Assembly: GCA_016933115.1 (NCBI GenBank)
Contig: JAFGBL010000296.1
Location: 1,170 to 65,169, forward strand
From: Bacteroidales bacterium
GTDB taxonomy: Bacteria; Bacteroidota; Bacteroidia; Bacteroidales; JAADJA01
DNA: 64,000 nt
Direction of reading: 5' to 3'
Shown one piece after another: positions 1-17,665 of this stretch. The notes below the pieces were generated by a model, which worked only from the letters and a program-made list of their open reading frames with translations, was not told the origin of the DNA and made no database searches. The position numbers and the translations under genes were made by a program. Each line of letters starts with the position of its first letter. Position 1 is the stretch's first letter.

Positions 1-1492
1 TAACGCATACGTGAACCATATAGGTAAACTTGAAGGTAATTTTAACGGTTCCATTAAATTAAATAACAGGTGGTCGACCATGCTCTATCTTCACGGTGAA
101 AACCTGAACAATAAAGTCGACCACAACGGTGATTCATTTGTGGATGAACCATTGGTAAAACAATACCATGTTTTCAACCGATGGAAATACGCCCATAATA
201 ACTATATGGCACAATTTGGGGTGCAGCTACTGGATGAGGACAGGACTGCCGGACAGGTGGAATTTGATAAAACTGAAAATCCTGAAAATTCCAGCTATTA
301 TGGTATCAACATCCGAACCAAGCGGTATCAGGCCTGGGGTAAAACCGGATACATTTTTAACAATAATTCTGAAACAAGCCTGGGTTTTATCAACTCTTAT
401 ACTTATCATGACCAGTCATCCTTTTTTGGTTTAACCCGATACAACGGAAGTGAAAATACCTACTATGCCAATTTGATCTTGCAATCAGAGATAGGATCTC
501 ATAAGCATAAGTACAGTACAGGATTAAGTTACTTATACGATGTTTATAAAGAAAGCCTCAACGATAGTATTTTTAATCGTATGGAAAGTGTTCCCGGTGT
601 ATTTTTTCAGTACACCTATTCTAATGAAAAAAACCTGACTTTACTATTGGGTGTACGAAGTGATTTTCACAATTTATACGGAACATTTATTACTCCGCGG
701 GTACATGTGAAATATAATTTTAATGAGCATACCATTCTGAGATCTTCAATTGGAAAAGGGTACAGGTCGGCAAATATTATAGCTGAAAACAGTTATTTAC
801 TTGCAAGTTCGCGAAATATTATTGTAAAACCAACGATAAAGCAGGAAGAGGCTTGGAATTATGGCATCAACCTCACACAAATTTTTAATATCAATGATAG
901 GGATCTGAACATCAATATCGAATTTTATCGTACTGATTTTGTCAACCAGGTAGTTGTTGACCGGGATCAAAGTGTTTCAGAAATTAACATCTATAACCTG
1001 GATGGGAAATCCTTTTCCAATAGTTACCAGATCGAAGCTGTATATGAATTAATACCCCGACTTGATGTTGTTGCGGCTTTCAGGTACAACGATGTACAAA
1101 TGACAATTAGTAACAAGCTCGAAAGAGAGCCGTTAGTAAACAGGTATAAGGGGTTGTTCAGCCTCGCTTATAAAACCAACCTTGATAAATGGCAGTTTGA
1201 TTTTACAACACAACTCAATGGCGATGCAAGATTACCGGATACCAGGGAAAATCCTGCTATATATCAGCGACCGGAAAATTCTCCTGTTTATACGATTATG
1301 AATGTCCAGGTAACAAAAAACTTCAGGAAATGGAATATTTATTTGGGAGTTGAAAACCTTACCGACTTTAAGCAGCATGATCCGGTTATTGCTGCTGACG
1401 ACCCCTTCGGACCTCATTTTGATTCATCCATCGTGTGGGGGCCAATAATGGGAAGAAAATTTTACGGTGGAATAAAATATTGGATTAACTAA
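1..1492 (+). CDS. TonB-dependent outer-membrane receptor, C-terminal beta-barrel portion (5' end outside window)
   Basis: The frame is open to the window edge. It has an alternating beta-strand pattern rich in Y/N/G and ends ...KFYGGIKYWIN, typical of TBDT barrels. Confidence 0.75.
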   Translation, partial: NAYVNHIGKLEGNFNGSIKLNNRWSTMLYLHGENLNNKVDHNGDSFVDEPLVKQYHVFNRWKYAHNNYMAQFGVQLLDEDRTAGQVEFDKTENPENSSYYGINIRTKRYQAWGKTGYIFNNNSETSLGFINSYTYHDQSSFFGLTRYNGSENTYYANLILQSEIGSHKHKYSTGLSYLYDVYKESLNDSIFNRMESVPGVFFQYTYSNEKNLTLLLGVRSDFHNLYGTFITPRVHVKYNFNEHTILRSSIGKGYRSANIIAENSYLLASSRNIIVKPTIKQEEAWNYGINLTQIFNINDRDLNINIEFYRTDFVNQVVVDRDQSVSEINIYNLDGKSFSNSYQIEAVYELIPRLDVVAAFRYNDVQMTISNKLEREPLVNRYKGLFSLAYKTNLDKWQFDFTTQLNGDARLPDTRENPAIYQRPENSPVYTIMNVQVTKNFRKWNIYLGVENLTDFKQHDPVIAADDPFGPHFDSSIVWGPIMGRKFYGGIKYWIN

Positions 1493-1499
1493 AAAATAT

Positions 1500-1868
1500 A
1501 TGATGATGAAAACAATGAAAATATTATTAATAACATTCATTTTACAAATGGGATTTATAGCTAATTCTCAGGAAGAGAAAGATGATAAATTCAAAGAAAT
1601 TGAAATTAAGACATCCGCCCAATGTGAAATGTGTAAGGAAAGAATAGAAAAAAATATGGCATTTGAAAAAGGTGTTAAAGATGTGGTACTTGACCTGGAA
1701 ACCAAAGTTCTTACGATTAAGTATAGGTCTGATAAGACCGATCCGGGAAAATTAAAAAAAGCTGTTTCAAAAATTGGATATGATGCAGATGACGTAGCAG
1801 CCGATCCCAAGGCATACGAAAAACTGCCCGATTGCTGCAAAAAGGGAGGGCATGACCACGAGCATTAA
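1500..1868 (+). CDS. Secreted heavy-metal-associated (HMA) domain protein with Cys/His-rich tail
   Basis: Signal peptide, then an HMA fold with a CEMC (CxxC) metal site and the tail DCCKKGGHDHEH. It starts 8 nt after the receptor stop. Confidence 0.7.
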   Translation: MMMKTMKILLITFILQMGFIANSQEEKDDKFKEIEIKTSAQCEMCKERIEKNMAFEKGVKDVVLDLETKVLTIKYRSDKTDPGKLKKAVSKIGYDADDVAADPKAYEKLPDCCKKGGHDHEH

Positions 1869-1873
1869 AAATG

Positions 1874-1899
1874 AAAAAGCCCTGATATCAGGGCTTTTT
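1874..1899 (+). terminator. Rho-independent terminator
   Basis: The stem gccctg/cagggc has an A-run before it and a T5 run after it, 6 nt past the HMA stop. Confidence 0.75.
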
Positions 1900-2300
1900 C
1901 AGAAGAAGACTTAATATCTGGCTTGAAAAATTTATTTGTTATGGGATCAACGTAAGTTTAACAACATTTTCGGCTGCCAGTAAAAGCACAAAAAAAGCAA
2001 TTACCAACAATAGTAAAATAAAATTCGGATTAACCTTAATCATTCTGAAATGCTTCATTTTTAATACCAATCTATTTATAAAATTCATTTTTCTTCTTTT
2101 TCAGATTAACTAACAATAGGTAGATGTTAAATTTATTGATTAGGTTGCGTCGGTATAATTTTTCGTAGAAAAATCCATTGTACATTGCACGCAACCCTTC
2201 AAATTAAAAATCCATCTACATTACGTTGATCCTTTTGAGAGAGAATACAATTTTTTTCTATCTTAGTGGTTTTACTGATATTCAAATCTGGCAAAAACCG

Positions 2301-2861
2301 GTGGCTAAGATAGATATTGAGGAAATATTAAAAGGGTGTGTTAAAGGCAGCAGGAAAGCACAGGAACAGTTGTTCAAACTGTATTCAGACGAAATGTATG
2401 GTGTTTGTCTCTATTACTCCAAAGATTATACAGAAGCTGAAGATACACTTCACGAAGGATTTATAAAGGTTTTTCAAAAAATTGATCAATTTAGTCATAA
2501 GGGTTCTTTGGCAGGTTGGATAAAAAGGGTAATAATAAATACTGCCCTTGAGAAATTTCGAAAGCAGCACAAACTTTTTGCCCTCGGGGATGAGTCTGAT
2601 TATATCGATGACATACAGGAGGAAAAAGTCACCAGTGATATTTCAACACAAGATTTAATTAATCTTATCCGGGAATTATCACCACAGTACAGAATGGTTT
2701 TTAACTTATATGCCATTGAAGGATATTCACATAAGGAAATTGGTGAAATGCTCGGAATCTCAGAGGGGACTTCCAAATCGAACCTGGCCAGGGCAAGATA
2801 TATTTTGCAGGAAAAGGTTAAAAAATATTTTTACACATCTGATTTTAAAGATGCAAAATGA
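2301..2861 (+). CDS. ECF-type RNA polymerase sigma-70 factor
   Basis: Region 2 (LHEGFIKVFQKI) and region 4 HTH (YSHKEIGEMLGISEGTSKSNLARAR) are present. The ORF is open from 2226, but GTG at 2301 gives the usual ~186 aa. Confidence 0.8.
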   Translation: MAKIDIEEILKGCVKGSRKAQEQLFKLYSDEMYGVCLYYSKDYTEAEDTLHEGFIKVFQKIDQFSHKGSLAGWIKRVIINTALEKFRKQHKLFALGDESDYIDDIQEEKVTSDISTQDLINLIRELSPQYRMVFNLYAIEGYSHKEIGEMLGISEGTSKSNLARARYILQEKVKKYFYTSDFKDAK

Positions 2862-4243
2862 GTGATGAAATAAAAAATATTGATAAACTTTTCAAAGGCG
2901 GTTTAAGGGGATACAAGCACACCGTGCCTGTAAATGCCTGGAGCCGGATTGATGAAGACTTATCGCGGTTTGATAAACGCCGTAAATTCTTTTATTTCCG
3001 TTTGGTGGCCGCATCATTGCTCATTTTGATCGCTTTTGGAGCCGGATATTTTTATGGTATTTACAATGTAAAAGATATCTCTGATCAAACCTCTCCCAAA
3101 CAATCAGATCCTACTGAGGTTAATCAGGTAAATTCCGAAACCCTACAAAAAGAAACTGCGCAAGAGATTTTAATACCTGAGCCTTCAACAAGTCAAAATA
3201 TTGCCGTTGAGCCGTTGAAAATTCAAAGTGAAATTGCCCTTTCCAGGAACATTAAAGAGCCGAAAAACGAAGAGAGGACTACTATTAGACTTTCGACTGA
3301 TGAATATAAAATTTCCTATATTGGTTATATTACCGCAAAATCGCTTAACATTAAATTCAATGAGAATATTGATGATTTAAATGTCGACCTTCAGGATAAC
3401 ATTAATTCTGAAAAATCACTGGTAGAACTGGGAAATAAGGATCAGGAAACGTTTATATTTATTCCCTATGATAAAGAAAAGACAAGCAAGACTGATGTGA
3501 AATGGGCCTTAGGAGCACAGTTTGCCCCTGTAATCTCATACCGTGATATTAGCATTTCATACGAGGATGGGCAAACCGGAAATATCAATGATACCGAATC
3601 CCAACTCAATCATGCCGAAGACCCGCTTCTTGCCTATGCCGGTGGAATTGATGTGAATTACAATATTAACAAACGGTGGGTCATCCAGTCTGGTATGTAT
3701 TATTCCAGGATAGGACAGGTAAATAACCAGGCATTGAATTTCAAACAGGAAAATAATCAATACCTGCTTTTTGCTGTTAATACCTCAACCGGTGATATCA
3801 ATATTTCGTTTGAAAAAATTCCGGACCATATAAAGAAATTTGAAAGTCAGAAAGATACGATTCAAGCCATTGGCCTTGATAATATTAAAGTTGTACAAAA
3901 CTTTGATTTATTTGAAATTCCGGTTGTTATTAAATATAAAATCCTGAACAAACAATTCGGCATTAACATTTCAGGGGGATTAAGTCCTGCCTATTTACTT
4001 AATAACAATACTATACTTGAAGTAAACAGTGATAAATACAACATCGGCAATTCGGCCAACCTGAACTCTCTGATTGTTAATACCACATTGGCTTTGGGAT
4101 TCGATTACTCCATTTCAAAAAAGATTTCAGTAAATTTCGAACCTACGTTCAAATATTCCTTAAGCCCGATCAATAACAACAGTCAGTTTTATTACCATCC
4201 CTATTACTTTTCCTGGTTTACAGGAATCAGGTATAAATTCTAA
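2858..4243 (+). CDS. Sigma-coupled membrane protein: N-terminal single TM segment plus C-terminal OM beta-barrel-like domain
   Basis: ATGA overlap with the sigma gene. One TM helix (aa ~44-66), a low-complexity linker, and a C-terminal half with beta-strand periodicity ending ...FTGIRYKF. Confidence 0.55.
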   Translation: MSDEIKNIDKLFKGGLRGYKHTVPVNAWSRIDEDLSRFDKRRKFFYFRLVAASLLILIAFGAGYFYGIYNVKDISDQTSPKQSDPTEVNQVNSETLQKETAQEILIPEPSTSQNIAVEPLKIQSEIALSRNIKEPKNEERTTIRLSTDEYKISYIGYITAKSLNIKFNENIDDLNVDLQDNINSEKSLVELGNKDQETFIFIPYDKEKTSKTDVKWALGAQFAPVISYRDISISYEDGQTGNINDTESQLNHAEDPLLAYAGGIDVNYNINKRWVIQSGMYYSRIGQVNNQALNFKQENNQYLLFAVNTSTGDINISFEKIPDHIKKFESQKDTIQAIGLDNIKVVQNFDLFEIPVVIKYKILNKQFGINISGGLSPAYLLNNNTILEVNSDKYNIGNSANLNSLIVNTTLALGFDYSISKKISVNFEPTFKYSLSPINNNSQFYYHPYYFSWFTGIRYKF

Positions 4244-4378: not shown

Positions 4379-5146
4379 TTATCTCCTTCTTCGCATAGGT
4401 AAATATCCTGGCATTCGTCCCCGGGTGCTCTTGCCTTTACCATAACTTTTGGATTTTTTGAAGCTCTCAATGTAATAAGTAACTCCTACACTCAGGTATG
4501 AATAATAGTCGTTGTTCTCATTTTTATTAAAATCATCCAATTTATCGTTTTGCGCCTGCCTCATCGCCATGTCAACTGTAGCTCCAAACTTATCGGTGAT
4601 TTTATAGGACATCCCCAAACCAAAGAAATAAACAAATTCAGGAATTCCGGTACTGTGAACATTAGATTCTGCATTTGTATCGCTTAAATCCCATTTTGTT
4701 GTTTTAAACAAGAATTGTCCTATACCGGCATATCCATCAATTCCAAGTTTAGAAATATTATCGGGAGAAAACAAGTTGATGAAATTAACCCTGACATGGA
4801 AGTTGTATTCCACAAAACTGGATTCAAAAGACTGGCCTGACATATTTTCACCCTTTAAGTTACCATATAGTAACTGACCGGAAACTCCGATTTTTCTGCT
4901 TATATTTTTAGTCAGAATACCTCCGAATGCTGGCCCGCTTTCCTGTGTAAGCTTTTCCATCACTTCGGTATCATAGATACTAAGATCACCAAAAAATGAA
5001 GATAAACCCATATTTACATTAAATGACCAATCGTCCCAAAATCCGGGTTTTCTTCGGCCACCCCAACCTTGTGCAGATGACAATTCCGGCATTACCATAC
5101 CAAAAATGATCACCGACAAAACCAATATTTTTAATTCTCTTTTCAC
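4379..5146 (-). CDS. Outer-membrane beta-barrel protein (porin-like, DUF6089-like), paralog 1
   Basis: Signal peptide ending SSAQ and beta-barrel periodicity. About 50 percent identical by eye to the next ORF (WSFNVNMGLSSFFGDLSIYD vs WSLGVNAGQTAFFGDVSLYD). Confidence 0.6.
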   Translation of the reverse strand: MKRELKILVLSVIIFGMVMPELSSAQGWGGRRKPGFWDDWSFNVNMGLSSFFGDLSIYDTEVMEKLTQESGPAFGGILTKNISRKIGVSGQLLYGNLKGENMSGQSFESSFVEYNFHVRVNFINLFSPDNISKLGIDGYAGIGQFLFKTTKWDLSDTNAESNVHSTGIPEFVYFFGLGMSYKITDKFGATVDMAMRQAQNDKLDDFNKNENNDYYSYLSVGVTYYIESFKKSKSYGKGKSTRGRMPGYLPMRRRR

Positions 5147-5214
5147 GATTATATAGTTTTTTTATTTTTCAATATTAAAGCTTCATTCATTTTATAGTTA
5201 AATCCACTAGTTTG

Positions 5215-5991
5215 TTAGTTCTTATATCTTCTAATTAAAGGAGATTTCATCCCCAGTTTTTTATAGTATCGGGTATCCCTGGGTCGATTATTTATTTTAT
5301 ATGTAAATCCCAGGGAGATATATGAATAATAATCTTTATCTTTTTTATTTGAAGTGCCATCCAAACGATCATTGTTAACCATCCTGGCTGTTCCATCAAA
5401 ATTTACATCGAACGCATGGTTGATGATATAAGAAGCACCACCTCCAATCAGGTATAGAAATTCAGGAGATTCCGGTTGAACCAGTAAATCCTGTTTATCA
5501 GGATCATCATACATTAACCGGGATTCAAACTGAAACTGTCCCATACCCAATTTACCATATAAGAAAAAGTGTGCATCATTGTCAGGTAAAAGCAAGTTGA
5601 CAAAATTCAACGTCAGATTAACTGAGTAATCCATGATATCGGCAACAAACTTCGATCGGGAATTACTGCCTTCCAGCTTGCCAACGAGCAATTGACCGCT
5701 TAATCCAATAACCGGAGTAATTTGCCTGTTTAAAGAGACTCCATATGCCCAGGCTCCCTCTTTTGACAATTTTTCACTCAACTCATCATCATATAGACTG
5801 ACATCCCCAAAAAAGGCAGTTTGTCCTGCGTTTACACCCAACGACCAATCCTTTGCCAGTTTGGACCAAAAAGATGGAGGTTTATGGTATTGACCAAAAG
5901 ACTTACTCTGGATAAGAAAAATCAATCCGATGAGAACCAGGTTCCATACGATTAAAAAAATGATGTTATATCTTTTGTCCTTTCTTTTCAT
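5215..5991 (-). CDS. Outer-membrane beta-barrel protein, paralog 2
   Basis: Tandem paralog of 4379..5146. The ORF is open to 6051, but MKRKDKRY at 5991 precedes the signal anchor. Confidence 0.6.
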   Translation of the reverse strand: MKRKDKRYNIIFLIVWNLVLIGLIFLIQSKSFGQYHKPPSFWSKLAKDWSLGVNAGQTAFFGDVSLYDDELSEKLSKEGAWAYGVSLNRQITPVIGLSGQLLVGKLEGSNSRSKFVADIMDYSVNLTLNFVNLLLPDNDAHFFLYGKLGMGQFQFESRLMYDDPDKQDLLVQPESPEFLYLIGGGASYIINHAFDVNFDGTARMVNNDRLDGTSNKKDKDYYSYISLGFTYKINNRPRDTRYYKKLGMKSPLIRRYKN

Positions 5992-6298
5992 TTCTGGACT
6001 ATTCAATTCATATATAATCCCAAAATTTAAATTGGGAATAAGCAATTTCAATGTTTATACCAAAATTTATAAAACACTGATTTTTCGCTATTTATAAAAG
6101 CATATACCAACTAAAAGATGAAGTAAAAAACTAATTTTAATGGGGGTAATTGAACTAATTGCTAATTATCAGCACTTTAGCGATAAACAAGTTGAAGTGG
6201 TTGTCTCCGGTTTCGTAGGAAGTTTTCTACTATAACCTTATAATTCAGGCTGAATTAATGTGTTTTATTAATAAAAATTCAATCGTGAAAAATTTTAA

Positions 6299-6943
6299 TC
6301 AGCAACCTCCTGCCGTCCCAGATTTTTTTTCCCTTTTGATGGGTATAACGTTTTCAGGTTTAACTTGCTCTGTTACAGATTTTATATTCTCCGATGTAGA
6401 TTGGTCAATAAACTCTGAAAAATTCATGACTGGCTCTTCAACAATATAATTGGGTTTATGTATGTAGTCAGCTTTTCCAGGTTCCAGTTGATGAAAAAAA
6501 TCATACCCTCCAGCAAGGACCTGTACATTATTGAAACCCAATTGCCTTAGAAACATCCATGGACCATTTGCTTCCAACTGATTTTTTCCATAAAGTATAA
6601 CATTTACAGAATTCTTTTCACTTTCTTCGAAAAATGAAAAACCATCCTCAGATAAAATCTCCGAAACCGGAATATTGATTGCATTTTCCAAATGTCCGCG
6701 GCTAAAGTCGTAAGGGTTTCGCAAATCGACCAAAAGGTATTGCTTGCCACCAGATGAAAGCATTTGTTTCATTTGCTCTGGAAGAACCGTGTTATCAGGA
6801 TTTTGAAGTTCCTTGAGCATCTCATTTTCAGAAAGACCATACTCAAATTTTGGCGGTTTCAGGGTTATAAATCCTACAACGATAATGAGGATGAAAACTA
6901 TAATAGCCCGGGTTAGCCTGTGTGTCCTGTTAATATCTTTCAT
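6299..6943 (-). CDS. Membrane-anchored rhodanese-fold protein lacking the catalytic-loop Cys, C-terminal ...REKKSGTAGGC
   Basis: N-terminal TM helix and rhodanese signatures LVDLRNPYDFSRGHLENAINIP ... VQVLAGG. The loop position reads ILYGKNQ, and the only Cys is the last residue. Confidence 0.8.
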   Translation of the reverse strand: MKDINRTHRLTRAIIVFILIIVVGFITLKPPKFEYGLSENEMLKELQNPDNTVLPEQMKQMLSSGGKQYLLVDLRNPYDFSRGHLENAINIPVSEILSEDGFSFFEESEKNSVNVILYGKNQLEANGPWMFLRQLGFNNVQVLAGGYDFFHQLEPGKADYIHKPNYIVEEPVMNFSEFIDQSTSENIKSVTEQVKPENVIPIKREKKSGTAGGC

Positions 6944-6960
6944 GCTTGATCTTTTTAAAA

Positions 6961-7578
6961 TTAACAGCCTCCTGCTGTAACTGACTTTTTTTCACGTCTT
7001 TTGATAATCACATTTTCTGTTGAATTTTCAGTATTGGTTTCGATATTTGCTCCGCCCCCGAAATACTGGCTGGCGGCCAACCTGAATGAATACATGTCGA
7101 AATCCTGTGAAGGGGATCCAGGGGACGGAGATTTAGGTTGCATGATGGATTCAAACCAATGATTCAATCCACCTTTCAAAACATACAGATTTTTATATCC
7201 CCTCCGGGCACATAAAATCCAGGCCTGGTCTGCCCACAAGTCACCATTTGAATAAAGGACAATCTCCAGATCATTCCTGTTAAGATACCCTTCATTGTCA
7301 ATTAACAACACTTGTTCCAATGGAATATTGATTGCTCCGGGTAAGGCATATTCCCCGTACTGAGCAGCAGGCCTGACATCTACCAGTAAAATGGAAGGAT
7401 CCTTTTCAATTAAGCGGTGTGCTACCAGGTCAGTGCTAAGATATCTTGAGGAATTATTTATTTCCATTAAAAGCTTTTCGGGATCCAACTCTTTTTGATT
7501 CTTTTTTTCCGGCAGGAATACAAGAACCGCCGCACCCAATATGGCAACAATAGTTAATAATATGTATGTCCTCGACAT
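6961..7578 (-). CDS. Membrane-anchored rhodanese-fold protein lacking the catalytic-loop Cys, C-terminal ...REKKSVTAGGC
   Basis: N-terminal TM helix and LVDVRPAAQYGEYALPGAINIP ... YVLKGG. The loop reads VLYSNGD, and the tail is the same as in 6299..6943. Confidence 0.8.
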   Translation of the reverse strand: MSRTYILLTIVAILGAAVLVFLPEKKNQKELDPEKLLMEINNSSRYLSTDLVAHRLIEKDPSILLVDVRPAAQYGEYALPGAINIPLEQVLLIDNEGYLNRNDLEIVLYSNGDLWADQAWILCARRGYKNLYVLKGGLNHWFESIMQPKSPSPGSPSQDFDMYSFRLAASQYFGGGANIETNTENSTENVIIKRREKKSVTAGGC

Positions 7579-7592
7579 GTGTTTTCCGTTTT

Positions 7593-8183
7593 TTAATAGT
7601 TAACTTCCTTGATCCTTCGTCCGATAAGACTGGTTACATAAAATGCTGCCAATGCCATAACCGCAAAAAGGAAAATAAATAAGTTATCCGAAATTCCCAA
7701 TGATTCAGTAACTTTTACCGAGCCCAGGTAATTTCCATTGTATAAACCTTCCCAAACCGGATAACCTTCACTGAATATAAAAATTCCCAGCATCAATCCT
7801 ATGGTAAATATGATACCATCAATTTTTCCAATGGCAACTGCACATAAACTGGTACCTGGGCAAAAACCTCCTGTAATAAATCCCAATCCCATTATAAGAC
7901 CACCTACGATCGCAGCTGTTAGATAAGTTGGATGAATGTAAGCAAGCGACATGTCAATCCATCCGACATAACTGAAGTATGCCAGTCCCACTGCAGTCGT
8001 CACGGCAGCAGTAAAAAAAACTCTTAATACCGTAAAATCATAACCATAAAACAATCCGACAATCTTTCTTGAAGATGAAAAGCCTGAACTTTCCAAAACA
8101 AATCCAAATGCTACTCCGATCAGAACCGCCATTACACTGTTCCATTGATCCGGAATGATACCCATTGGAATTAAAGGTCCCAT
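7593..8183 (-). CDS. YeeE/YedE-family sulfur-compound transporter, C-terminal-type half
   Basis: Polytopic, with the GGFCPGTS motif. The ORF is open to 8240, but MGPLIP at 8183 avoids overlap with the upstream half. Confidence 0.75.
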   Translation of the reverse strand: MGPLIPMGIIPDQWNSVMAVLIGVAFGFVLESSGFSSSRKIVGLFYGYDFTVLRVFFTAAVTTAVGLAYFSYVGWIDMSLAYIHPTYLTAAIVGGLIMGLGFITGGFCPGTSLCAVAIGKIDGIIFTIGLMLGIFIFSEGYPVWEGLYNGNYLGSVKVTESLGISDNLFIFLFAVMALAAFYVTSLIGRRIKEVNY

Positions 8184-8202
8184 AATATTAAGTTTAAATT
8201 TC

Positions 8203-8751
8203 CTAAATCCATAATTTTCTGAAAAACCATGCAAAAGCATAGGCTGAACCGAATATAGCCAGCATTGTCAGGAATCCCCCCAACGATAACACAGCAGCAC
8301 CCGACAGGGCTGCACCACTTGTACAACCGCGTGCCACCTGTGCACCAAATCCAAATAGCACACCTCCAATTCCCGCAAACAATAACCGCCTTTTGTTTGT
8401 AATTTTAGGATTGTGTTCGGTTTTGAGTTTCAACCTTCCTGAAATCGCTCCTGATAAAAATGCGCCGGCCAATACTCCTATGACTTCAAAAACAAGCCAG
8501 GTATTCAATGGATGGTTATCATCGCTGAGAAACTGACTGTAATAACCTGAATTTTCAGCATGTTCCGGTGCAAACCTGTCAACAACAGCGACAACCGTAC
8601 TTTTCGCTGCACCACTGGCCCCCAATCCCCTGCCTGTTATATAAAAAGTAGCAAGCAATACCATACCCAGAAGTACCCCTCCAAAATAGGGATTAAAATA
8701 TACCTTACTGCGATCTTTGTGATTCGTATCCATGTTTAGTAAAATTTTCAA
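8203..8751 (-). CDS. YeeE/YedE-family sulfur-compound transporter, N-terminal-type half
   Basis: Polytopic, with the ARGCTSGAALSG motif. There is a 4-nt overlap with the upstream NrfD gene. Confidence 0.75.
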   Translation of the reverse strand: MKILLNMDTNHKDRSKVYFNPYFGGVLLGMVLLATFYITGRGLGASGAAKSTVVAVVDRFAPEHAENSGYYSQFLSDDNHPLNTWLVFEVIGVLAGAFLSGAISGRLKLKTEHNPKITNKRRLLFAGIGGVLFGFGAQVARGCTSGAALSGAAVLSLGGFLTMLAIFGSAYAFAWFFRKLWI

Positions 8752-9689
8752 TATAAATACCTGGTTAACTGTCCGGCTTCAACCATAATAAACCTGAAGA
8801 CCAATCCTCCCATTAAAATAAGTATTGCTGGAATGGCAATCGGAACCTTATATCCTGACAACTCCATGATTTCAAGAATAGCAGGGAAAACAAGGCCTAA
8901 AATGATAACGAAAACCCAGAATGAAACGGTGAAATCTCCACCAAGAAACAAGCCGGCTGCTTCAAGTTGAACGGTGGGTCCTGCCAGGAAACCCATGATC
9001 ATATGAGTGATCAGAAAAAGCTCTATGCCAATGAGTACAAGGTCAATTTTACCCAAGGTTTTTCTTTCCGTATGATTTTTCGACATCCACATGGTGGTTG
9101 CCACACCTGTCGACATTCCCGAAATCAGGAATAGCGGACCGAGTATTGCATTGTTCCACAATGGCCGTGCATTAAATGCCGATAACAAAATCCCGGTATA
9201 AATCCCCAAAATCAAGGAAAAAACCATCATTACCCAGGCAATTGGTCTGCGATTGCTATTCACCCATTTTTCAAAAGAATTGAGATAACCAAATTTCCAG
9301 TTCCATTGTGGGATAATATCTTTTATATAAGCAGCAACCCAAATGATGGATAAGGGAGTAATGAACATCAACACCCATGCACCCCACGACATTGGCGATT
9401 CAAGCCTGATGGTAGTATATAACTGCCAGAAAAAAAGTTTATGTTTCAAGTCGAGAAACAAGGCAATCAAACCCAGGATCAAAACTCCGGGGACTAAAAA
9501 TGTCGCCCATTTCACAGTGGTTTCCATTTCCTTTTCCTTGCCCATCACAGTGAACAATCCGGCAAAAAAGAGGATTCCGGCCGCCAACCCGCCAAGGAAC
9601 AGGTAAATCGGGATTTGCCAATGCCATATATTTAAGTAAGGATCAATATTGGGGATATCCCTGCCGCTAACGAATAATTCTTCTCTCAT
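8748..9689 (-). CDS. NrfD/PsrC-family quinol-oxidising membrane anchor of a molybdoenzyme
   Basis: A 313-aa protein with about 8 TM segments, placed directly after the 4Fe-4S subunit in the canonical ABC order. Confidence 0.8.
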   Translation of the reverse strand: MREELFVSGRDIPNIDPYLNIWHWQIPIYLFLGGLAAGILFFAGLFTVMGKEKEMETTVKWATFLVPGVLILGLIALFLDLKHKLFFWQLYTTIRLESPMSWGAWVLMFITPLSIIWVAAYIKDIIPQWNWKFGYLNSFEKWVNSNRRPIAWVMMVFSLILGIYTGILLSAFNARPLWNNAILGPLFLISGMSTGVATTMWMSKNHTERKTLGKIDLVLIGIELFLITHMIMGFLAGPTVQLEAAGLFLGGDFTVSFWVFVIILGLVFPAILEIMELSGYKVPIAIPAILILMGGLVFRFIMVEAGQLTRYLY

Positions 9690-9705: not shown

Positions 9706-10239
9706 TTAGGTTAGAAAATAAATTTGCGGGTTTGTTCCTGCTTCCGGAGCAAGCACCTTAAATTTCCTGTGTTTTAATACCTGCGAAACATCGCTATAAG
9801 GATCATCCAGGTCGCCAAAATAGAGGCATTTAGTCGGACAAACAGCCACACAGGCAGGTTGATCCCCTTTTTTAACCCTGTGTTCACAAAAGGTACATTT
9901 ATCCACGTATCCATCTGGATGTGAGTAACGCGCATCGTACGGACAAGATTGAATACAGGCACCGCAACCGATACACTTTTCGTGCGTAACCAGGACAATC
10001 CCGCCTTCTACGATATGGCTTGCACCGGTCGGACAGCAACGCACACAGGGTGAATTATCGCAATGGTTACATCTTTCAGATCGCAATTCAATTTCAACAT
10101 TGGGGTAAGTTCCGTCAACGTTTTCAACAATCCAGTCGCGGCAGTAACCAATTGGAACATTATTTTCAGTCTGACAGGCGACGACACAATCGCTGCAACC
10201 TACACATTTTTTAGTATCAACTGCCATTGCATATCTCAT
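9706..10239 (-). CDS. 4Fe-4S dicluster electron-transfer subunit (PsrB/PhsB-like)
   Basis: Multiple CxxCxxCxxxCP ferredoxin motifs (CVGCSDCVVAC, CIGCGACIQSCP, CTFCEHR...CVAVCP). ATGA overlap with the catalytic subunit. Confidence 0.9.
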   Translation of the reverse strand: MRYAMAVDTKKCVGCSDCVVACQTENNVPIGYCRDWIVENVDGTYPNVEIELRSERCNHCDNSPCVRCCPTGASHIVEGGIVLVTHEKCIGCGACIQSCPYDARYSHPDGYVDKCTFCEHRVKKGDQPACVAVCPTKCLYFGDLDDPYSDVSQVLKHRKFKVLAPEAGTNPQIYFLT

Positions 10240-12485
10240 GACTCAACCTCCTTCACCGGTTTTTCAGTTAAAAATGTAATAAAATTACCTCTCATGCCTG
10301 TTCCTCCCATAATCGGATCCACCATCACATGAGTGATCATTTCACTATCGCTGGCCCCTTTGCCGTAAGCCCTTGATAGTAACTTATCAGAATGTCCGAA
10401 ACCATGAACCATATAAACCGAATCCCAGCGGATCCTTTCAGTTATCCTCACTTTAATTGGAAAAGTCGTAACCACATCATCCTGGTTTTTTAGCCAAACA
10501 TTTTGACCTGTTTTCAAACCCCACAATTTCGCTACTTTGGGATTGACCCAAACAGAATTTTCCTTCATCAGGTCAGTCAGGTTTGGATTATTGGCGGTCC
10601 GGCTAAAAGTATGCATCGGAGCGCGGCCATAGATCAGCCTGTAAAAACCTGCAGGAGGTTCCGGATGTTGCTTAAACACAGGCATCGGGTCAAAATTCTC
10701 GGCGGCCAGTTCATTGGAAAATAGTTCTATTTTACCTGATGGCGTGTTGAATTCAACATCTTCGCCCCTGGTGTAATAAAGGTTTCCGCCTTTCCTATCT
10801 AATTTTTTCACACCGATTTTTTGCATTTCCTCTAGCGAAGACCCGACCTGTTTCAACTGCCAATCGAGTAATTCTGTAATATCATTATAGGGGAAATAAT
10901 CGCCAAGTCCCATTTTCTCAGCCAGTTTTTTGGCAATCCACCAACCGGGCTTGGAATTATATTTTGGTTCAACTGCCGGCATTCTCAAAGCCAGGTATGG
11001 ATCCCTATGTGGTGAAGTACGAACCAGGTCATAGCGCTCAAGGTAAGTACATTCGGGAAAAATCACATCGGCATAACCGGTTATTTCCATTGGCATGGTA
11101 TCAATCACGACCATAAATTCGAGGTGTGAAATTGCTTCGAGGGTATTTTGCATATTCGGCAGGGTTAATGGCAAATTGGTGCCGTATACGATCCATGCCT
11201 TAAAAGAGCAGTCCCTGTTGCTGGTTGGGATGGTGGCATCGCATATTCCGGATGCAAGGGCCAGGGTAGCCAGTTTGAATTGCCCGGGATATGCATCTCT
11301 CCAGGTTCTTCTTGGTTTTGGGAAAGGTGGATGCTCGATACTGGGCAGATGAGCACTTTCTTTCAAATAAAATCCTCCCCTGCTTCCCCAGGATCCCAAC
11401 AAGGCATTCAAAATTGCAGCTGCCCTCACCCTTTGGGTATCATCTCCGTACCAGGTAACATGACGACCGGGGTGAACAATGACTGCGGGTGCGGCTTCTG
11501 CCATTTCACGGGCAGTTTTTCTAATCACATCCGGTTTGATAGTAGTTTTGCCATAAGCCCATTCAGGTGTCATGTTTTTTACATGATCCTTCAATAAATC
11601 AAAACCATAGGTGTATTGTCCTACAAAGTACTTGTTGTATATATCCTCATAAATCAGAACATGGATCCAGGCAAGCAACAAGGCCAGGTCGGTTGCCGGT
11701 TTGATGGGTAGCCAGTATTTTGATTTGCTTGCTGCTGTTGAAAATCTGGGATCAACTGTGATGATGGTTGCCCCTTTGTCAATGGCATCCGACATTTCCT
11801 GAACCTGCCCGTTATGCATATTTTCACCGATGTGTGAGCCGATCAAAACCAGGCAACGGGTATCCCTGATATCGGTAGGTTCGGGAGATCCAACTTCCTC
11901 TCCATAAGTGGCAATCCAGGCGGTTTCCCTTGGGCCGCGACATTGCGCAAACGATGGTGCTGCAATATTGTTTGATCCAAACCCTTTCAGGAGATCACCA
12001 AAATATTTTCCACCTGATCCATGATTAAATAGGGCAATACATTCAGGCCCGTGCTTTTCACCAACTTCCTTTAATTTTTTGGCCGTGTATTCAAGCGCTT
12101 CATCCCAACTGGCTTCCCTGAAAGTTTGTTTCCCATCTTTTTCAACCCTGATTAATGGGGTCTTTAAACGATCCTGATCGTAATACATCCCCGGCCCGCC
12201 TGTTCCCCTCGGGCATAACCTACCGTTACAATGAGGATCCTCTTCGTTACCAACAACCTTGACAATCTCATTATTTTCATTTACATATGTCCAACCGGCG
12301 CATTTCCAAAAGCAGATTTCACAGTATGTTGGAAAACGTTTTAAGTTATGGCCCCTAAATTCCAGGGGTTTTTTGTCTGCTGCGAATAATTTATTTCCTC
12401 CCATCAGGTTATAGGAGGATGCCGCAACAGCAGCACCACCCAAGCCCAGAGCCGATATTTTAATAAAATCCCTTCGATTACTCAT
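10236..12485 (-). CDS. Tat-exported molybdopterin (Mo-bisPGD) oxidoreductase catalytic subunit, polysulfide/thiosulfate-reductase type (PsrA/PhsA-like)
   Basis: Twin-arginine signal MSNRRDFIKISALGLGGAAVAA, N-terminal FeS motif CEICFWKC...CNGRLCPRG and the molybdopterin domain. The start is set at MSNRR rather than ORF start 12536. Confidence 0.85.
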   Translation of the reverse strand: MSNRRDFIKISALGLGGAAVAASSYNLMGGNKLFAADKKPLEFRGHNLKRFPTYCEICFWKCAGWTYVNENNEIVKVVGNEEDPHCNGRLCPRGTGGPGMYYDQDRLKTPLIRVEKDGKQTFREASWDEALEYTAKKLKEVGEKHGPECIALFNHGSGGKYFGDLLKGFGSNNIAAPSFAQCRGPRETAWIATYGEEVGSPEPTDIRDTRCLVLIGSHIGENMHNGQVQEMSDAIDKGATIITVDPRFSTAASKSKYWLPIKPATDLALLLAWIHVLIYEDIYNKYFVGQYTYGFDLLKDHVKNMTPEWAYGKTTIKPDVIRKTAREMAEAAPAVIVHPGRHVTWYGDDTQRVRAAAILNALLGSWGSRGGFYLKESAHLPSIEHPPFPKPRRTWRDAYPGQFKLATLALASGICDATIPTSNRDCSFKAWIVYGTNLPLTLPNMQNTLEAISHLEFMVVIDTMPMEITGYADVIFPECTYLERYDLVRTSPHRDPYLALRMPAVEPKYNSKPGWWIAKKLAEKMGLGDYFPYNDITELLDWQLKQVGSSLEEMQKIGVKKLDRKGGNLYYTRGEDVEFNTPSGKIELFSNELAAENFDPMPVFKQHPEPPAGFYRLIYGRAPMHTFSRTANNPNLTDLMKENSVWVNPKVAKLWGLKTGQNVWLKNQDDVVTTFPIKVRITERIRWDSVYMVHGFGHSDKLLSRAYGKGASDSEMITHVMVDPIMGGTGMRGNFITFLTEKPVKEVES

Positions 12486-12514
12486 ACATCGAAATTTCTT
12501 TATATATAAAAAAG

Positions 12515-12522
12515 CAAATATA
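12515..12522 (-). promoter_or_regulatory. Candidate Bacteroidota -7 promoter box for the 7-gene sulfur operon
   Basis: Reads TATATTTG (TAnnTTTG) on the minus strand, 29 nt upstream of the psrA-like ATG. Confidence 0.4.
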
Positions 12523-12739
12523 TACTGCAGATACAACCTGTTTTTTAATTAACAATGGGAATTGCTCATTATAATTACTGTTCTATATCAGTTTTTTTTA
12601 CGTCAAATTGATGATAAACATTTTAAGTAACTGATAAAGAGTTTAATTTGGTGATTTTCTGCTTGAAAAAGTATAATTCTGAAAAAAACAAGTTACATTT
12701 TGGCAGATTATCTGAAATTTGTAAAACCAATTGTTTGAT

Positions 12740-13144
12740 ATGAGTGAAAATAAAAATGGAATATCACGCAGGAATTTTTTAAAGTGGCTGGGCTGGCTGA
12801 TGGCAATTCCATATGTTTTTATTACGGGTATATCCATTAAAAGGAATAATCAAATCAATTCAAAAAAAACTGTACGAACCTCTTCGAATATTGCCGCCGG
12901 GGTAACCTTTTCCGGGCAGGTGATCCTTGTAAAAAACAATGCCTCGGTCCATATTTTTTCATCCAGATGCACCCATTTGGGTTGCAGGATTAATTCCCTT
13001 GAAAATGACGAAATTGTTTGTCCATGCCACGGGTCGAGGTTCGATTTGGAAGGCAATTGCATTAAAGGGCCGGCGAATAAACCGCTCAAAAAATTTAAAT
13101 TTGAATTGGATTCAGTTCGGGATGAATATGTCATTGAACTTTGA
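12740..13144 (+). CDS. Tat-exported Rieske [2Fe-2S] protein
   Basis: [10 protein letters not shown] twin-arginine motif, and Rieske boxes CTHLGC and CPCHGS. ATG at 12740, with an alternative TTG at 12731. Confidence 0.85.
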
Positions 13145-13172: not shown

Positions 13173-15992
13173 TTGAGACTATTAAACAAAATAAAATCTT
13201 TCATTTTTTTTGATACCTATGGCGCGATTGCTACCGTATCTTTTTTAATTTGTGCCATTTCAGGGATTGTTCTTGCCATCCCATTCGATATTCAAAATCC
13301 TTATGAATCAATATCCATTATTTTAATTGCCAATCCTGCTGCCAATTTCTTCAGGAATATCCACTACTGGAGTGCTCAGTTTTTCCTCATGTTCTCAGTC
13401 CTGCACATTTGGGATCACTTAAAAATGAGAACCGAAAAAAATCAAACCAAAGGAATCTGGTTCAGGCTAAGTCTTTCTGTACCTGTTATTTTCTTTGTTA
13501 TGATTTCGGGGTTTATCCTGAAAGCCGACCCTGATAGCATACAAGCCCGAAGAATAATTTCAACCCTGATTTCAAAAATACCGTTATTTGGAAATTCACT
13601 GGCTTACGGACTTTTTGGATCTGAGGGGGATTACCAAATCATTTATGTACAACACATTGCGACTGCAACAATTTTTTTGGCTATTGTTATTTGGGAACAT
13701 GCCCACACTTTGTGGACCAGGTTATCTACCTTTATCATCATTCTGGCCGTACTTACTGTTTTGGGACTTATTTTGCATGCCCCACTTCACAATGGATTAA
13801 GTCCCGTGGTAAAAGGTCCCTGGTACTTTGTCGGTTTGCAGGAAATTTTGCATTGGATCAGCAATACGGGAATAGTCCTGATATTTATATTGATTCTAAT
13901 TCTTTCTTTTTACGCCCTTATTTATCTAGGTAAAAAATCATCGTTAATATTAAAAAGGGGATTTCTTTATCTTTTTTATGTCTATATCCTTTTAACCGTC
14001 ATCGGTTATTTTTTCAGGGGTGAAAACTGGTCGTGGGAAAAACCCTGGGAAGGAAAGTACGTCCAGGGAGATCCTTTCCGAACCGGTTTGTATATTCCGG
14101 ATATTAGTTTAGATACCTTAACGAAAGAAGATTTGCCACAAGCCGGTGAACGCAGGGAAGCCTGTATGGCTTGTCATAAAAATGTTTTGGGATTTGCCAA
14201 AGCCCATGATCCCCAGGCAATCGGGTGTGCCTCCTGCCATTTGGGCGATCCCTTTAGCCTGAATAAAAACCGGGCACATCGCAATATGGTTCTTATTCCG
14301 GGTAACCTTGCAAATGCCCGTCAAACCTGTGGAAGTGTGCAATGCCATCCTGAAATTGTACCCCGTGTAATGAATTCTTTAATGACATCTAACAGTGGCA
14401 TTGTGAGTGTTGACCGATTTGTTTTCGAAGAAACCGGTTCGCCCGATATCCAATCTCATATTAAGGATATTGGACACTCAGCTGCTGATCAACACCTCCG
14501 AAATTTATGTGCAAATTGCCACCTGGGGAAAGAAAAAACAGAACCCGGTCCCGTGAACCAGCTTTCCAGAGGCGGTGGTTGTATCGCCTGCCATCTCAAT
14601 TATTCGAACTCGGCTACAACACAACACATGGCTTATATCTCAGGGTTAAAAAATGAAAAATTACTTCCTAAGGTTCATGCTTCATTGGATATTAATATTT
14701 CCAACGATCACTGTTTTGGTTGCCACAGCCGCTCAGGAAGGATTTCCACCAATTACCAAGGTTGGCACGAAACACTGCTGGACGAAAAGGTTGTTGTTGG
14801 GAAAGAAGGATACAGGGTACTCGAAGATAAAAGAGTGTTTGAGTTTGTGGCTGAAGATGTGCATCATAAAGCCGGAATGGATTGTATCGATTGCCACAAT
14901 TCCTATGAGGTTATGGGGGATGGAACGATCTATCTGCATGAGGAACAAGCTGTAAAAATCCGTTGTGAAGATTGCCATTTAACTGAAAGGCCACACATGT
15001 CAAATTACGATCAACTGGATGCGGAATCCAGAAAAATATTCGATCTCAGAAAATTCGAACACCAGGATAAGCCTATGATTAGGGAAAAGGAATCGATGAT
15101 AACCTTGATCAATACTTTTTATGAAAATGATACCGCTTTTATGATTGGGAAAAACAGCGGGAAATTGCACATTATGAATCCTCCACCTTCAATCTGTACT
15201 CGGGTGGCCCATGAAAGCCTTACCTGCAGTGCTTGTCATACAGCCTGGGCACCGCAATGCATCGGTTGTCATAATGTTTATGATAAAAAGGCTGACGGAT
15301 ATGACCTGCTTACAGATAAACCGCTGACCGGTACCTGGGTTGAATATGTAGGCAAATTTCTGGCTGAACCACCGACTTTGGGTGTTTGGCAAGGAGAACG
15401 GAATCAAATAAGTCCGGCAATACCGGGGATGATTCTTACGATTGATAATAACTCCTATTCTGATGACTTTGAGATATCGGATGAATTAAAAATGATTTTT
15501 CACCGTCTTTTTGCACCGGCAACTCCACATACCACAAATTCGAAAGGCCGTGATTGCAAATCGTGCCACAACGATCCGCTGGCCATCGGGTATGGCCGCG
15601 GTGAATTGATTTACAGCATCGACCTTTTAGGTTTGCATCAGCCAGAAGCCAAAGCTAATCTAACAGGACATTCTGCAAAAAAAGGATACTGGACCTTCCA
15701 ACCGAAATATGCTGCCAATAAATATGATGGTTTACCGGAAGATGCCTGGATAGCATTTGATCCTTATTCATCCGAAGAACTGCGGTCATCGGACAGTACA
15801 ATGAGTGCTACCCGCCTCAATTTCAGGCCGTTCACAAAAGAAGAACAGCGAAGGATATTGCGCGTTGGTGCCTGTCTTTCCTGTCATGATGAAAATTCGG
15901 AGATCATGTTAAAAAGCCTGGATGGGGAATTTAAATCCTACCTGGAAACCATCAACGACAAATGCATCCTTCCTGACTGGAATCCATATTAA
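13173..15992 (+). CDS. Cytochrome b6/subunit-IV-like membrane domain fused to a periplasmic multihaem (about 12 haem) cytochrome c
   Basis: About 7 TM helices. Haem-b ligands are H-x13-H (HYWSAQFFLMFSVLH) and H-x14-H (HIATATIFLAIVIWEH). The Qo PEWY-equivalent is KGPWYFVGLQEIL. These are followed by 11 CxxCH motifs plus one CGSVQCH (Cx4CH). Confidence 0.8.
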   Translation: MRLLNKIKSFIFFDTYGAIATVSFLICAISGIVLAIPFDIQNPYESISIILIANPAANFFRNIHYWSAQFFLMFSVLHIWDHLKMRTEKNQTKGIWFRLSLSVPVIFFVMISGFILKADPDSIQARRIISTLISKIPLFGNSLAYGLFGSEGDYQIIYVQHIATATIFLAIVIWEHAHTLWTRLSTFIIILAVLTVLGLILHAPLHNGLSPVVKGPWYFVGLQEILHWISNTGIVLIFILILILSFYALIYLGKKSSLILKRGFLYLFYVYILLTVIGYFFRGENWSWEKPWEGKYVQGDPFRTGLYIPDISLDTLTKEDLPQAGERREACMACHKNVLGFAKAHDPQAIGCASCHLGDPFSLNKNRAHRNMVLIPGNLANARQTCGSVQCHPEIVPRVMNSLMTSNSGIVSVDRFVFEETGSPDIQSHIKDIGHSAADQHLRNLCANCHLGKEKTEPGPVNQLSRGGGCIACHLNYSNSATTQHMAYISGLKNEKLLPKVHASLDINISNDHCFGCHSRSGRISTNYQGWHETLLDEKVVVGKEGYRVLEDKRVFEFVAEDVHHKAGMDCIDCHNSYEVMGDGTIYLHEEQAVKIRCEDCHLTERPHMSNYDQLDAESRKIFDLRKFEHQDKPMIREKESMITLINTFYENDTAFMIGKNSGKLHIMNPPPSICTRVAHESLTCSACHTAWAPQCIGCHNVYDKKADGYDLLTDKPLTGTWVEYVGKFLAEPPTLGVWQGERNQISPAIPGMILTIDNNSYSDDFEISDELKMIFHRLFAPATPHTTNSKGRDCKSCHNDPLAIGYGRGELIYSIDLLGLHQPEAKANLTGHSAKKGYWTFQPKYAANKYDGLPEDAWIAFDPYSSEELRSSDSTMSATRLNFRPFTKEEQRRILRVGACLSCHDENSEIMLKSLDGEFKSYLETINDKCILPDWNPY

Positions 15993-17035: not shown

Positions 17036-17665
17036 ATGCCTGAATGCGCCGAATGCGGAGGATTCACAAAATATAATGGAGGTCTCTGTTATAACTGTTA
17101 TTAAAAACAAAACGGAAACAAAGACAATGGTAAGAAAACCATAGTAGAAGAAATACCGGAAGAGAATGAGAATTACGGATTGAGTAAGAAAGAAAGGAAT
17201 TACCTGTAGGCATGATCAAAGGTCGGATTGCTGAAACGTTGACACAGGAATTATTTTTTAGCCTGGGCTATATGTTTTTCGTTATGGGATGGAGAACACC
17301 ATTCCCGGCATTATGGAACTGTTAAAAGGAGTACGCTCGCATGCAGCGCATGAAATCCGCCGCATGCCCGATTTTGTAATTCAGGACCCGAAAAAAAAAC
17401 TGTATATTTTGTGGAGGCGAAGTTCAGGGCAAGTGGTGAATTCAGGTTAAAAGATATTCCCAAAGATTACCCTTAAGAAAATACCTATTTCATCCTTGTA
17501 TCAAAAAAGTACATCAAGTGTATCAACTACCAGGAATTGAAGGAAAGAAAAGAAATAACACCTACATCCCGGAACTATCGTGGAAACCGCAAAGAATTCG
17601 ACCCTGACAAACAGGTGATCATTGAGTTTTTTGAAATTGAGGTTCAGTTTTCTGAGAGTGTTTAG
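17036..17665 (+). pseudogene. Decayed zinc-ribbon + PD-(D/E)XK nuclease-fold gene
   Basis: The reading can be followed as MPECAECGG..CYNCY* ... GRIAETLTQELFFSLGY / YGMENTIPGIMELLKGVRS..RRMPDFVIQD / VEAKFRASGEF..DYP*ENTYFILVSKKY. This is possible only by changing frame at least 3 times and passing several stops. Confidence 0.7.

Follow-up and report, generated by a model that had tools for sequence, protein, structure and literature searches.

Paired rhodanese-fold proteins with a C-terminal Gly-Gly-Cys arm encoded beside psrABC in a Bacteroidales genome

Polysulfide and elemental-sulfur respiration is a major electron sink in anoxic sediments, and to our knowledge the delivery of sulfur, which is unstable and dissolves poorly, to the buried molybdenum site of polysulfide reductase (Psr) is understood for Sud of Wolinella succinogenes only. 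Sud, in work attributed to Klimmek et al. 1998-99 and Lin et al. 2004, is reportedly a periplasmic polysulfide-sulfur transferase that feeds this reductase. Here, we describe two adjacent genes, rhd1 and rhd2, found in 64,000 nucleotides of a Bacteroidales bacterium (GenBank assembly GCA_016933115.1, contig JAFGBL010000296.1, positions 1,170 to 65,169; hereafter the window). They encode paralogous, membrane-anchored rhodanese-fold proteins that have lost the catalytic-loop cysteine, carry an invariant cysteine as their last residue and belong to an operon with psrABC. Judged by analogy, the pair most likely carries sulfur as an accessory to a respiratory enzyme of sulfur metabolism, with a Sud-like role and a SoxY-like design, and a member of neither family.

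Like Sud, Rhd1 and Rhd2 have a single, probably periplasmic domain of rhodanese fold, and the role proposed here for the pair is the one ascribed to Sud, i.e., carrying polysulfide sulfur covalently on a cysteine to Psr. However, Sud is a soluble homodimer that uses its catalytic-loop cysteine, whereas the Rhd proteins lack that residue, bear their cysteine at the very end of an arm, are tethered to the membrane and are encoded as two paralogs inside a psr operon. Sud was absent from the PDB matches listed, both for the single sequences (E-values up to 0.01) and within the top 60 obtained with the family profile, and no specific sequence relatedness to it was found. A periplasmic site and a functional coupling to Psr, as in Sud, may also apply to the pair, in line with a predicted signal anchor or lipoprotein signal and operon linkage to a PsrA that is predicted to be exported by the twin-arginine translocation (Tat) system.

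The arm itself recalls SoxY. This Sox sulfur carrier is described in PMC11237559, which cites Sauve et al. 2007, as holding its substrate on a swinging arm that is conserved at the C terminus. SoxY is a periplasmic protein, and its flexible arm, with an invariant Gly-flanked cysteine at the extreme end (GGCGG), reaches into the active sites of the enzymes that it serves. In the Rhd family, too, some ends read GGCS or GGCG. SoxY differs in its Ig-like beta-sandwich, its SoxZ partner and its oxidative pathway (SoxXA, SoxB, and SoxCD), whereas the Rhd pair has a rhodanese body, no SoxZ and, as its putative partner, a reductase of the molybdenum-bis(pyranopterin guanine dinucleotide) (Mo-bisPGD) type. 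No Pfam or NCBIfam match to SoxY or SoxZ was obtained, and the likeness, confined to the GGC(-S/-G) end, is one of analogy, not homology. As an analog, the SoxY arm nevertheless appears closer than ThiS and MoaD, of which the Gly-Gly-Cys end had reminded the authors of a preliminary description of this DNA, made from the sequence alone. That comparison did not survive, as the Rhd proteins are predicted to be exported, are not of the beta-grasp fold and have no adenylating enzyme encoded nearby. A thiocarboxylate carrier resembling ThiS, MoaD or CysO was thus rejected on the rhodanese fold, the predicted exported location and the lack of an E1-like gene in the cassette; matches to MoeB/MoeZ models cover the rhodanese domains of these models only and are far below the NCBIfam cut-off.

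Other described proteins share single traits with the pair. Inactive rhodanese domains (Alr3790, the N-terminal domains of tandem rhodaneses, and the CH2 domains of mitogen-activated protein kinase phosphatases) have kept the fold, lost the loop cysteine and are the closest matches in sequence, but none of them has a conserved C-terminal cysteine arm, a membrane anchor or linkage to psr. DsrC/TusE carries sulfur or a trisulfide on a cysteine of a flexible C-terminal arm and is the substrate of a respiratory membrane complex; unlike the Rhd proteins, DsrC is cytoplasmic and of another fold, with two cysteines ten residues apart, the terminal one being the penultimate residue. TsuB/YeeD and TusA are small cysteine-bearing partners encoded beside a YeeE-family transporter, but they are cytoplasmic proteins of the TusA fold with a CPxP cysteine near the N terminus. 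No such gene occurs in the operon, and neither Rhd1 nor Rhd2 has a CPxP motif or a Pfam or NCBIfam match to the TusA family. Rhodanese genes have been reported within psr operons of sulfur disproportionators (PMC12142623), and the ergothioneine synthase MES, in which a persulfide relay feeds a metallopterin enzyme (PMC9516567), is a loose precedent only. We found no curated model, database name or paper in which a rhodanese ends in a conserved Gly-Gly-Cys arm or such a protein is paired with psrABC, although subscription journals were little covered and an earlier mention is possible. The preliminary description, which knew of no sulfur-relay protein of this design, thereby agrees with the generic database names, the sub-threshold NCBIfam matches and the lack of a paper.

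Rhodanese-fold proteins whose conserved cysteine is terminal

The two genes and their main elements, deduced from the list of open reading frames (ORFs), Pfam, AlphaFold and alignments, are as follows:

6299-6943, minus strand: Rhd1, 214 amino acids (aa), TGA stop; signal-anchor helix at about 2-27, Cys-less rhodanese domain at about 39-152, conserved extension, and charged tail leading to GGC
6302-6334, minus strand: Rhd1 tail codons, REKKSGTAGGC
6572-6598, minus strand: Rhd1 equivalent of the catalytic loop, ILYGKNQLE, without Cys
6961-7578, minus strand: Rhd2, 205 aa, TAA stop, paralog of Rhd1; anchor helix at 3-20, Cys-less rhodanese domain at 33-146, conserved extension, and tail leading to GGC
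6964-6996, minus strand: Rhd2 tail codons, REKKSVTAGGC
7240-7260, minus strand: Rhd2 equivalent of the catalytic loop, VLYSNGD, without Cys

Rhd1 and Rhd2 are 28% identical over their full length (E-value of 3e-19). The ORFs confirm the two nearly identical tails and the differing stops, TGA and TAA, that had first drawn attention to the pair, and Pfam, AlphaFold and Foldseek agree with the N-terminal transmembrane helix and the rhodanese signatures reported at that time. The Pfam Rhodanese model (PF00581) matched Rhd1 with 58.8 bits and Rhd2 with 56.3 bits (cut-off of 22.2), and both the scores and the alpha/beta fold place the two proteins in the rhodanese homology domain. The AlphaFold2 model of Rhd1, built on a 94-sequence alignment, has a mean predicted local distance difference test score (pLDDT) of 81, with more than 90 in the domain (39-152), a helix at residues 2-27, a short helix at 175-184 and a pLDDT of about 42 for the last residues. 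The model of Rhd2 is equivalent (pLDDT of >90 for the body and 50-69 for the last residues). Foldseek retrieved only rhodanese-fold structures with the Rhd1 model, e.g., 3gk5 (target-normalized TM-score of 0.81, root mean square deviation of 2.3 Å).

The catalytic-loop cysteine had been described as absent, with ILYGKNQ and VLYSNGD in its place, and alignments at three levels support this. In the alignment to solved rhodaneses, the catalytic cysteine of TVG0868615 falls opposite the I/L of VILYGKNQ; among 142 aligned family members, no loop column has a cysteine in more than 4; and across 84 Rhd1 and 84 Rhd2 orthologs, no cysteine other than the terminal one is conserved. Neither protein therefore has the CxxGxR[ST] loop cysteine of the catalytic rhodaneses (GlpE, PspE and Sud type). 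D73/R75 and N90-I91, which are structural motifs of rhodaneses, have been retained. The top structural match of Rhd2 is the naturally Cys-less domain of Alr3790, and the family profile best matches inactive-type domains, namely that of Alr3790 and the N-terminal ones of 1UAR and EanB. A count of cysteines bore out that Rhd1 has exactly one, its last residue (C214); the second cysteine of Rhd2, C123, is kept in only 9 of 84 orthologs.

The segment between domain and terminus had been taken for a low-complexity linker, which fits the last ~25 residues, variable and charged, but not the first 25-35 after the domain, which are conserved and partly helical. In Rhd2, this extension of ~35 residues is well conserved among the 84 orthologs (W..TII.P..P.E.A....FE.Y.FRKGA..YFTG), and beyond it come ~25 variable residues, then a basic patch and GGC. 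An example of a tail peptide sequence is RREKKSVTAGGC.

The net charge flanking the anchor is about +2.2 before and +0.9 after the helix in Rhd1, and about +2.2 and -0.6, respectively, in Rhd2; the more positive N-terminal flank favors an N-in, C-out orientation. A lipoprotein signal peptide takes the place of the anchor in two relatives (P0147 and P0160) and in the Rhd2-type partner of locus L091. Given these flank charges and lipoprotein signals, together with a Tat-exported PsrA, the domain and its arm are predicted from sequence to lie in the periplasm.

A full HMMER profile search of 1.84 billion representatives of 50% identity clusters returned 240 family members with an E-value of <1e-30. 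In the set of 147 short matches (roughly 170-245 aa), 143 end in GC, GCS or GCG (GGC, 114; EGC, 24; GCS, 3; QGC, 1; GCG, 1), and the other four appear truncated. Only D73, R75, G213 and C214 are invariant in the 142-member alignment. The AGGC-type terminus singled out in the preliminary description is thus kept in essentially every homolog, with psrABC and split yeeE genes co-occurring. Members are named "hypothetical," "rhodanese-like domain-containing" or "rhodanese-related sulfurtransferase" in the databases, and since the only NCBIfam matches are far sub-threshold ones to rhodanese-containing models, no curated family covers Rhd1 and Rhd2. Selenocysteine read-through past the GGC was rejected, as the stop codons after the tail are a mixture of TAA, TAG and TGA across loci. 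Also rejected was TsoB, a rhodanese/DsbD selenoprotein, which scored 19-23 bits against a cut-off of 805; the review naming TsoB is silent on its function. Five proteins with high family-profile scores (P0015, P0016, P0019, P0022 and P0052) have another architecture, being very large (1000-2300 aa), anchored at the N terminus and furnished with 6-16 rhodanese-like repeats in tandem, and their C terminus is not GC.

Linkage to psrABC and matching of the tails

In the window, the pair closes a minus-strand operon of the order psrA-psrB-psrC-YeeE C-half-YeeE N-half-rhd2-rhd1, in which neighboring genes overlap or are separated by gaps of 14-17 bp:

7593-8240, minus strand: YeeE N-half-like transporter gene, with the conserved cysteine of GGFCPGTS
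8203-8751, minus strand: YeeE/PmpA-like half-transporter (C-terminal half of the profile), with the conserved cysteine of RGCTSGA
8748-9689, minus strand: PsrC, NrfD-type quinol-oxidizing membrane subunit
9706-10239, minus strand: PsrB, four-cluster ferredoxin subunit
10236-12536, minus strand: PsrA, Mo-bisPGD catalytic subunit with the twin-arginine signal SNRRDFIK

PsrA matches the structurally characterized Thermus thermophilus PsrA (2VPW chain A) over its full length (E-value of 1e-199, 668 bits), and Pfam and NCBIfam matches identify the Tat-exported Mo-bisPGD subunit, the four-cluster ferredoxin and the NrfD-type subunit of a PsrABC complex, whose substrate may be polysulfide, thiosulfate or another compound. 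The called psrA start (TTG, 12536) is probably too far upstream, Met18 at 12485, just before the twin-arginine motif, being likelier. The two transporter genes are of the split, PmpAB-type form of YeeE (PmpA and PmpB have been described as YeeE halves; PMC11582611). They match the Sulf_transp profile at 4-150 and 176-308 and keep one conserved cysteine each (GGFCPGTS and RGC[TS]SGA), although they are longer (~180-215 aa) than the ~130 aa of PmpAB. The called start of the N-half (8240, giving a 38-nt overlap with the upstream gene) is also probably too far upstream, the stretch in question being 8187-8240, and an internal Met is likelier.

Scanning a single genome for each GTDB species yielded 80 loci, and 8 metagenome loci were compared alongside. 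Every locus with enough flank has the order PsrA-PsrB-PsrC-YeeE-YeeE-Rhd2-Rhd1, and both Rhd proteins end in GGC throughout the GTDB loci, except for one truncated copy. As the scan was seeded on the Rhd1 motif, this 100% co-occurrence with psr holds for the Rhd1-motif subfamily. The 80 GTDB loci belong to Bacteroidales, Marinilabiliales, Prolixibacteraceae, Draconibacterium, Lentimicrobiaceae, Ca. Sulfidibacterium and the isolate Maribellus maritimus 5E3, as well as to metagenome-assembled genomes labeled Chlorobiota. Distant members checked singly (L089, L097 and L099) have the same cassette arrangement. In the variant of L092 and L093 (L092, 5441-12512), PsrABC is followed by Rhd-Rhd and a multiheme cytochrome, and the YeeE halves are absent, which leaves PsrABC as the constant neighbor of the pair; no locus with YeeE and the Rhd pair but without psr was found among the related loci. 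The preliminary description had envisaged a shuttle between YeeE and Psr. The linkage to psrABC and yeeE is in keeping with it, but L092 and L093 show that YeeE is not obligatory.

The tails of the two paralogs are matched within a genome. At positions -12 to -4, i.e., excluding GGC, Rhd1 and Rhd2 of one genome are 73% identical, compared to 43-48% between genomes, whether the proteins are orthologous or not, and none of 10,000 shuffles of the partners reached the observed within-genome identity. Codons differ at 60.5% of the identically conserved tail residues within genomes and at 58.9% between genomes. With synonymous sites thus saturated, it is selection that keeps the match, and recent gene conversion was rejected as its cause for most genomes (synonymous differences of 0.605 versus 0.589). 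L066 and L068, with near-identical tail DNA, are probable exceptions due to gene conversion.

Acidic tails are matched as well: KLIPKPVVEEEEEEEGC and KLLPKPVVEEEEEEEGC occur together in L089, tails of the EEEEEEGC type are found in L089, L091 and L092, and the pair of L092/L093 ends in ..EEEEDEEDEGC and ..EEEEEDEGC. Both proteins of L097 have a GGCS end, and in L099 a third rhodanese, a 387-aa lipoprotein encoded directly after the pair, has the same ..GGTSGGC-type end. The simplest reading is that every arm of one genome is recognized by a single, lineage-specific partner site. At the DNA level, the Rhd2 tail codons ACAGCAGGAGGCTGT (6964-6978, minus strand) hold a 5-bp hairpin and an AGGAGG sequence 17 nt before the rhd1 start codon; this is probably due to chance, the Rhd1 tail having no equivalent.

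The Gly-Gly-Cys end extends to other exported rhodaneses of the same genomic island. GGC is the commonest C-terminal tripeptide in the related loci (180 of 5829 ORFs), nearly always in rhodaneses, which argues that the tail is not a product of chance. One of these proteins, a lipoprotein of ~172 aa that represents a separate family, keeps the catalytic loop intact (YCKKGKRS) and has an acidic tail, ...GGEVGGC, with GGC in 120 of its 120 best homologs; its gene comes after those of a ~538-aa multiheme cytochrome c and a cytochrome b561. A two-domain exported rhodanese of ~301 aa ends in ..SSDGGC. It belongs to a module in which a gene for a Porin_O_P outer-membrane porin lies between two exported rhodanese genes, and its ..GGC end is found in L094, L032 and L039; within the island, this module may serve the uptake of sulfur. 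The positions, given in the coordinates of each locus, are as follows:

L004, 1352-1870; L094, 8001-8516; L095 and L096, 8001-8513: ~172-aa loop-Cys rhodanese
L094, 9447-12581; L032, 1457-2362; L039, 1280-2185; L092, 13409-16485: Porin_O_P porin between two exported rhodanese genes

Since the GGC end is also present on rhodaneses with a loop cysteine, its role does not hinge on that residue, which argues against a tail that only substitutes for a lost one. On long contigs, the island reads Rieske/cytochrome b-multiheme; Crp; multiheme cytochrome, cytochrome b561 and 172-aa rhodanese; Crp; rhodanese, Porin_O_P porin and 301-aa rhodanese; Crp; psrA. A Crp-family regulator precedes each operon.

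A putative carrier arm and competing explanations

With the fold, the lost loop cysteine, the invariant terminal cysteine, the psrABC linkage, the matched tails and the probable periplasmic site observed or computed, we propose, by analogy to SoxY, that Rhd1 and Rhd2 are periplasmic sulfane-sulfur carriers whose arms serve PsrABC and possibly the YeeE-like channel, a proposal that we see as evenly poised between right and wrong. We infer the loading of sulfur and its transfer to PsrA, as well as the formation of a heterodimer and the direction in which the reaction runs. The N-terminal anchors would tether both paralogs to the periplasmic side of the inner membrane, and the Cys-less rhodanese body would probably act as a docking or scaffold module. 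The terminal thiol, on its flexible charged arm of ~25 residues, would hold a persulfide or short polysulfide, and the island's exported rhodaneses with a loop cysteine would be plausible loaders. Once loaded, the arm would bring its sulfur into the substrate funnel of the menaquinol-dependent PsrABC, to be released as sulfide, and where a PmpAB/YeeE-like channel exists, it may also pass sulfur on for import. Psr could also run in reverse, as a sulfide oxidizer, and the data fit either direction.

A broader version, which we offer tentatively and consider somewhat doubtful, is that the real substrate of the widespread PsrABC of the Bacteroidota/Ignavibacteria type is the protein-bound persulfide on Gly-Gly-Cys arms and not free polysulfide. 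GGC would then be a general and hitherto unrecognized carrier module on several exported rhodanese architectures, each class of arm matched to, and co-evolving with, its own oxidoreductase, and the system would be a reductive counterpart of SoxYZ. If the carrier proposal is true, many uncultured sediment Bacteroidota would have a testable delivery mechanism based on operon-encoded, cysteine-armed carriers, the swinging-arm principle of SoxY would extend from sulfur oxidation to sulfur reduction, and "inactive" rhodanese domains would gain a use. A [GE]GC C terminus on an exported rhodanese is an easy mark by which to annotate such sulfur islands, and the lineage-specific matching of the tails offers a handle for tracing the partner of the arm.

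Several points weigh against a carrier for PsrABC. The matched tails point to a recognizing partner that is itself a postulate, and they run from strongly basic to strongly acidic, with which a single conserved PsrA funnel would need to co-vary; the tail classes are few and confounded with phylogeny. In the AlphaFold monomer models of Rhd1 and Rhd2, the tail does not dock onto any surface. For the wider family, 100% may be too high a figure for the co-occurrence with psr, and neither the Cys-less body nor the need for two paralogs is explained by a carrier. The arms could instead serve the split YeeE/PmpAB channel, the thiol taking up sulfane sulfur or thiosulfate in the periplasm and passing it to the conserved channel cysteines for import, or gating the channel through a mixed disulfide, with Psr merely a neighbor in the regulon. 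In most loci, the Rhd genes do come straight after the two YeeE halves, each half offers one conserved cysteine, a hand-over from persulfidated SoxYZ to the YeeE-like SoxT1A has been proposed (PMC11582611), and DsrC- and DsrE-like genes lie just downstream in L001. However, a pair with matched tails is found beside PsrABC in L092 and L093, where the YeeE halves are missing, and the converse, YeeE and the pair without psr, is not seen among the related loci, which makes this explanation unlikely. Still less probable is that the terminal cysteine is a relocated catalytic residue and the proteins are ordinary sulfurtransferases, each tail folding into its own or its partner's rhodanese pocket and restoring a conventional active site there. 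Its length would allow the tail to reach the pocket, and the fold is intact with the D73/R75 and N90-I91 motifs, but the tail is modeled with low confidence and undocked, and the loop region (YGxDQLEANGPWM) is acidic or neutral, without the basic residues that cradle a persulfide. Moreover, rhodaneses with a loop cysteine (YCKKGKRS) bear the same GGC end, and the family profile is nearest to the inactive-type domains of Alr3790 and of the N-terminal parts of 1UAR and EanB.

We give very little credence to the terminal cysteine as a ligand or attachment point, whether for a metal, for a heme of the neighboring multiheme cytochrome or for an iron-sulfur cluster bridging both tails. Genes for multiheme cytochromes adjoin the cassette, in L092 directly after Rhd1, and His/Cys-ligated hemes act in sulfur enzymes such as MccSep (PMC13510729). 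Yet a lone cysteine behind Gly-Gly, unaccompanied by any other conserved ligand, would make a poor site for a metal, and the adjacent cytochrome genes are missing from about half of the loci. The idea that conservation of the tail is an artifact of nucleic acid or assembly, i.e., a ribosome-binding site, a hairpin or gene conversion, is largely refuted and is the most improbable of all. It could appeal to the AGGAGG and 5-bp hairpin just upstream of the rhd1 start and to the nearly identical tail DNA of L066 and L068. Against it stand the free variation of codons at conserved residues, the saturated synonymous sites, the variable TAA, TAG and TGA stops and the persistence of the motif across hundreds of divergent proteins, and Rhd1 keeps its tail though no operon gene lies downstream. 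Compared with these alternatives, a periplasmic carrier arm serving PsrABC is the explanation that we prefer.

Neighboring genes

Upstream of psrA, two divergent genes are encoded on the opposite strand:

12731-13144, plus strand: Rieske protein, divergent from the operon
13173-15992, plus strand: cytochrome b fused to an ExtM-like multiheme cytochrome c, 939 aa

The cytochrome b-multiheme fusion is a probable electron-transfer partner, and the divergent pair is present in about half of the related loci. In the window, the fusion scored 245 bits with the NCBIfam ExtM model (cut-off of 800). The pair is similar to part of the ext cluster of Geobacter, namely the bc-like one; this cluster combines a bc-like complex with a porin and a rhodanese lipoprotein (PMC6148476). 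For S0 respiration, the multiheme selenoprotein of the cluster, MccSep (gsu2937-2936, the ExtKL locus of PMC6148476), has been shown to be essential (PMC13510729, PMC6148476).

A scan of the operon with sigma-70 promoter and terminator models stayed at background level, Bacteroidota promoters being outside the models of the scan. In the distant locus L001, genes for DsrC-like and DsrE-like proteins and tatC (11757-12588) lie just downstream of the cassette, which hints at a cytoplasmic sulfur relay able to receive imported sulfur. A MobA-like nucleoside triphosphate transferase gene in the window (18841-19449, minus strand), probably encoding a molybdenum cofactor guanylyltransferase, would fit the use of a bis-molybdopterin guanine dinucleotide enzyme, and the 409-aa ORF that adjoins it (17619-18848) has no Pfam match. 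Directly downstream of rhd1, positions 4379-6051 (minus strand) encode two paralogous outer-membrane beta-barrels of the OMP_b-brl/DUF6089-like type. The same synteny is repeated in L003 and L008, along with the genes at 11-4243 of the window, which encode an extracytoplasmic function sigma factor, an OMP_b-brl_2 protein, an HMA-domain protein and a TonB-dependent receptor.

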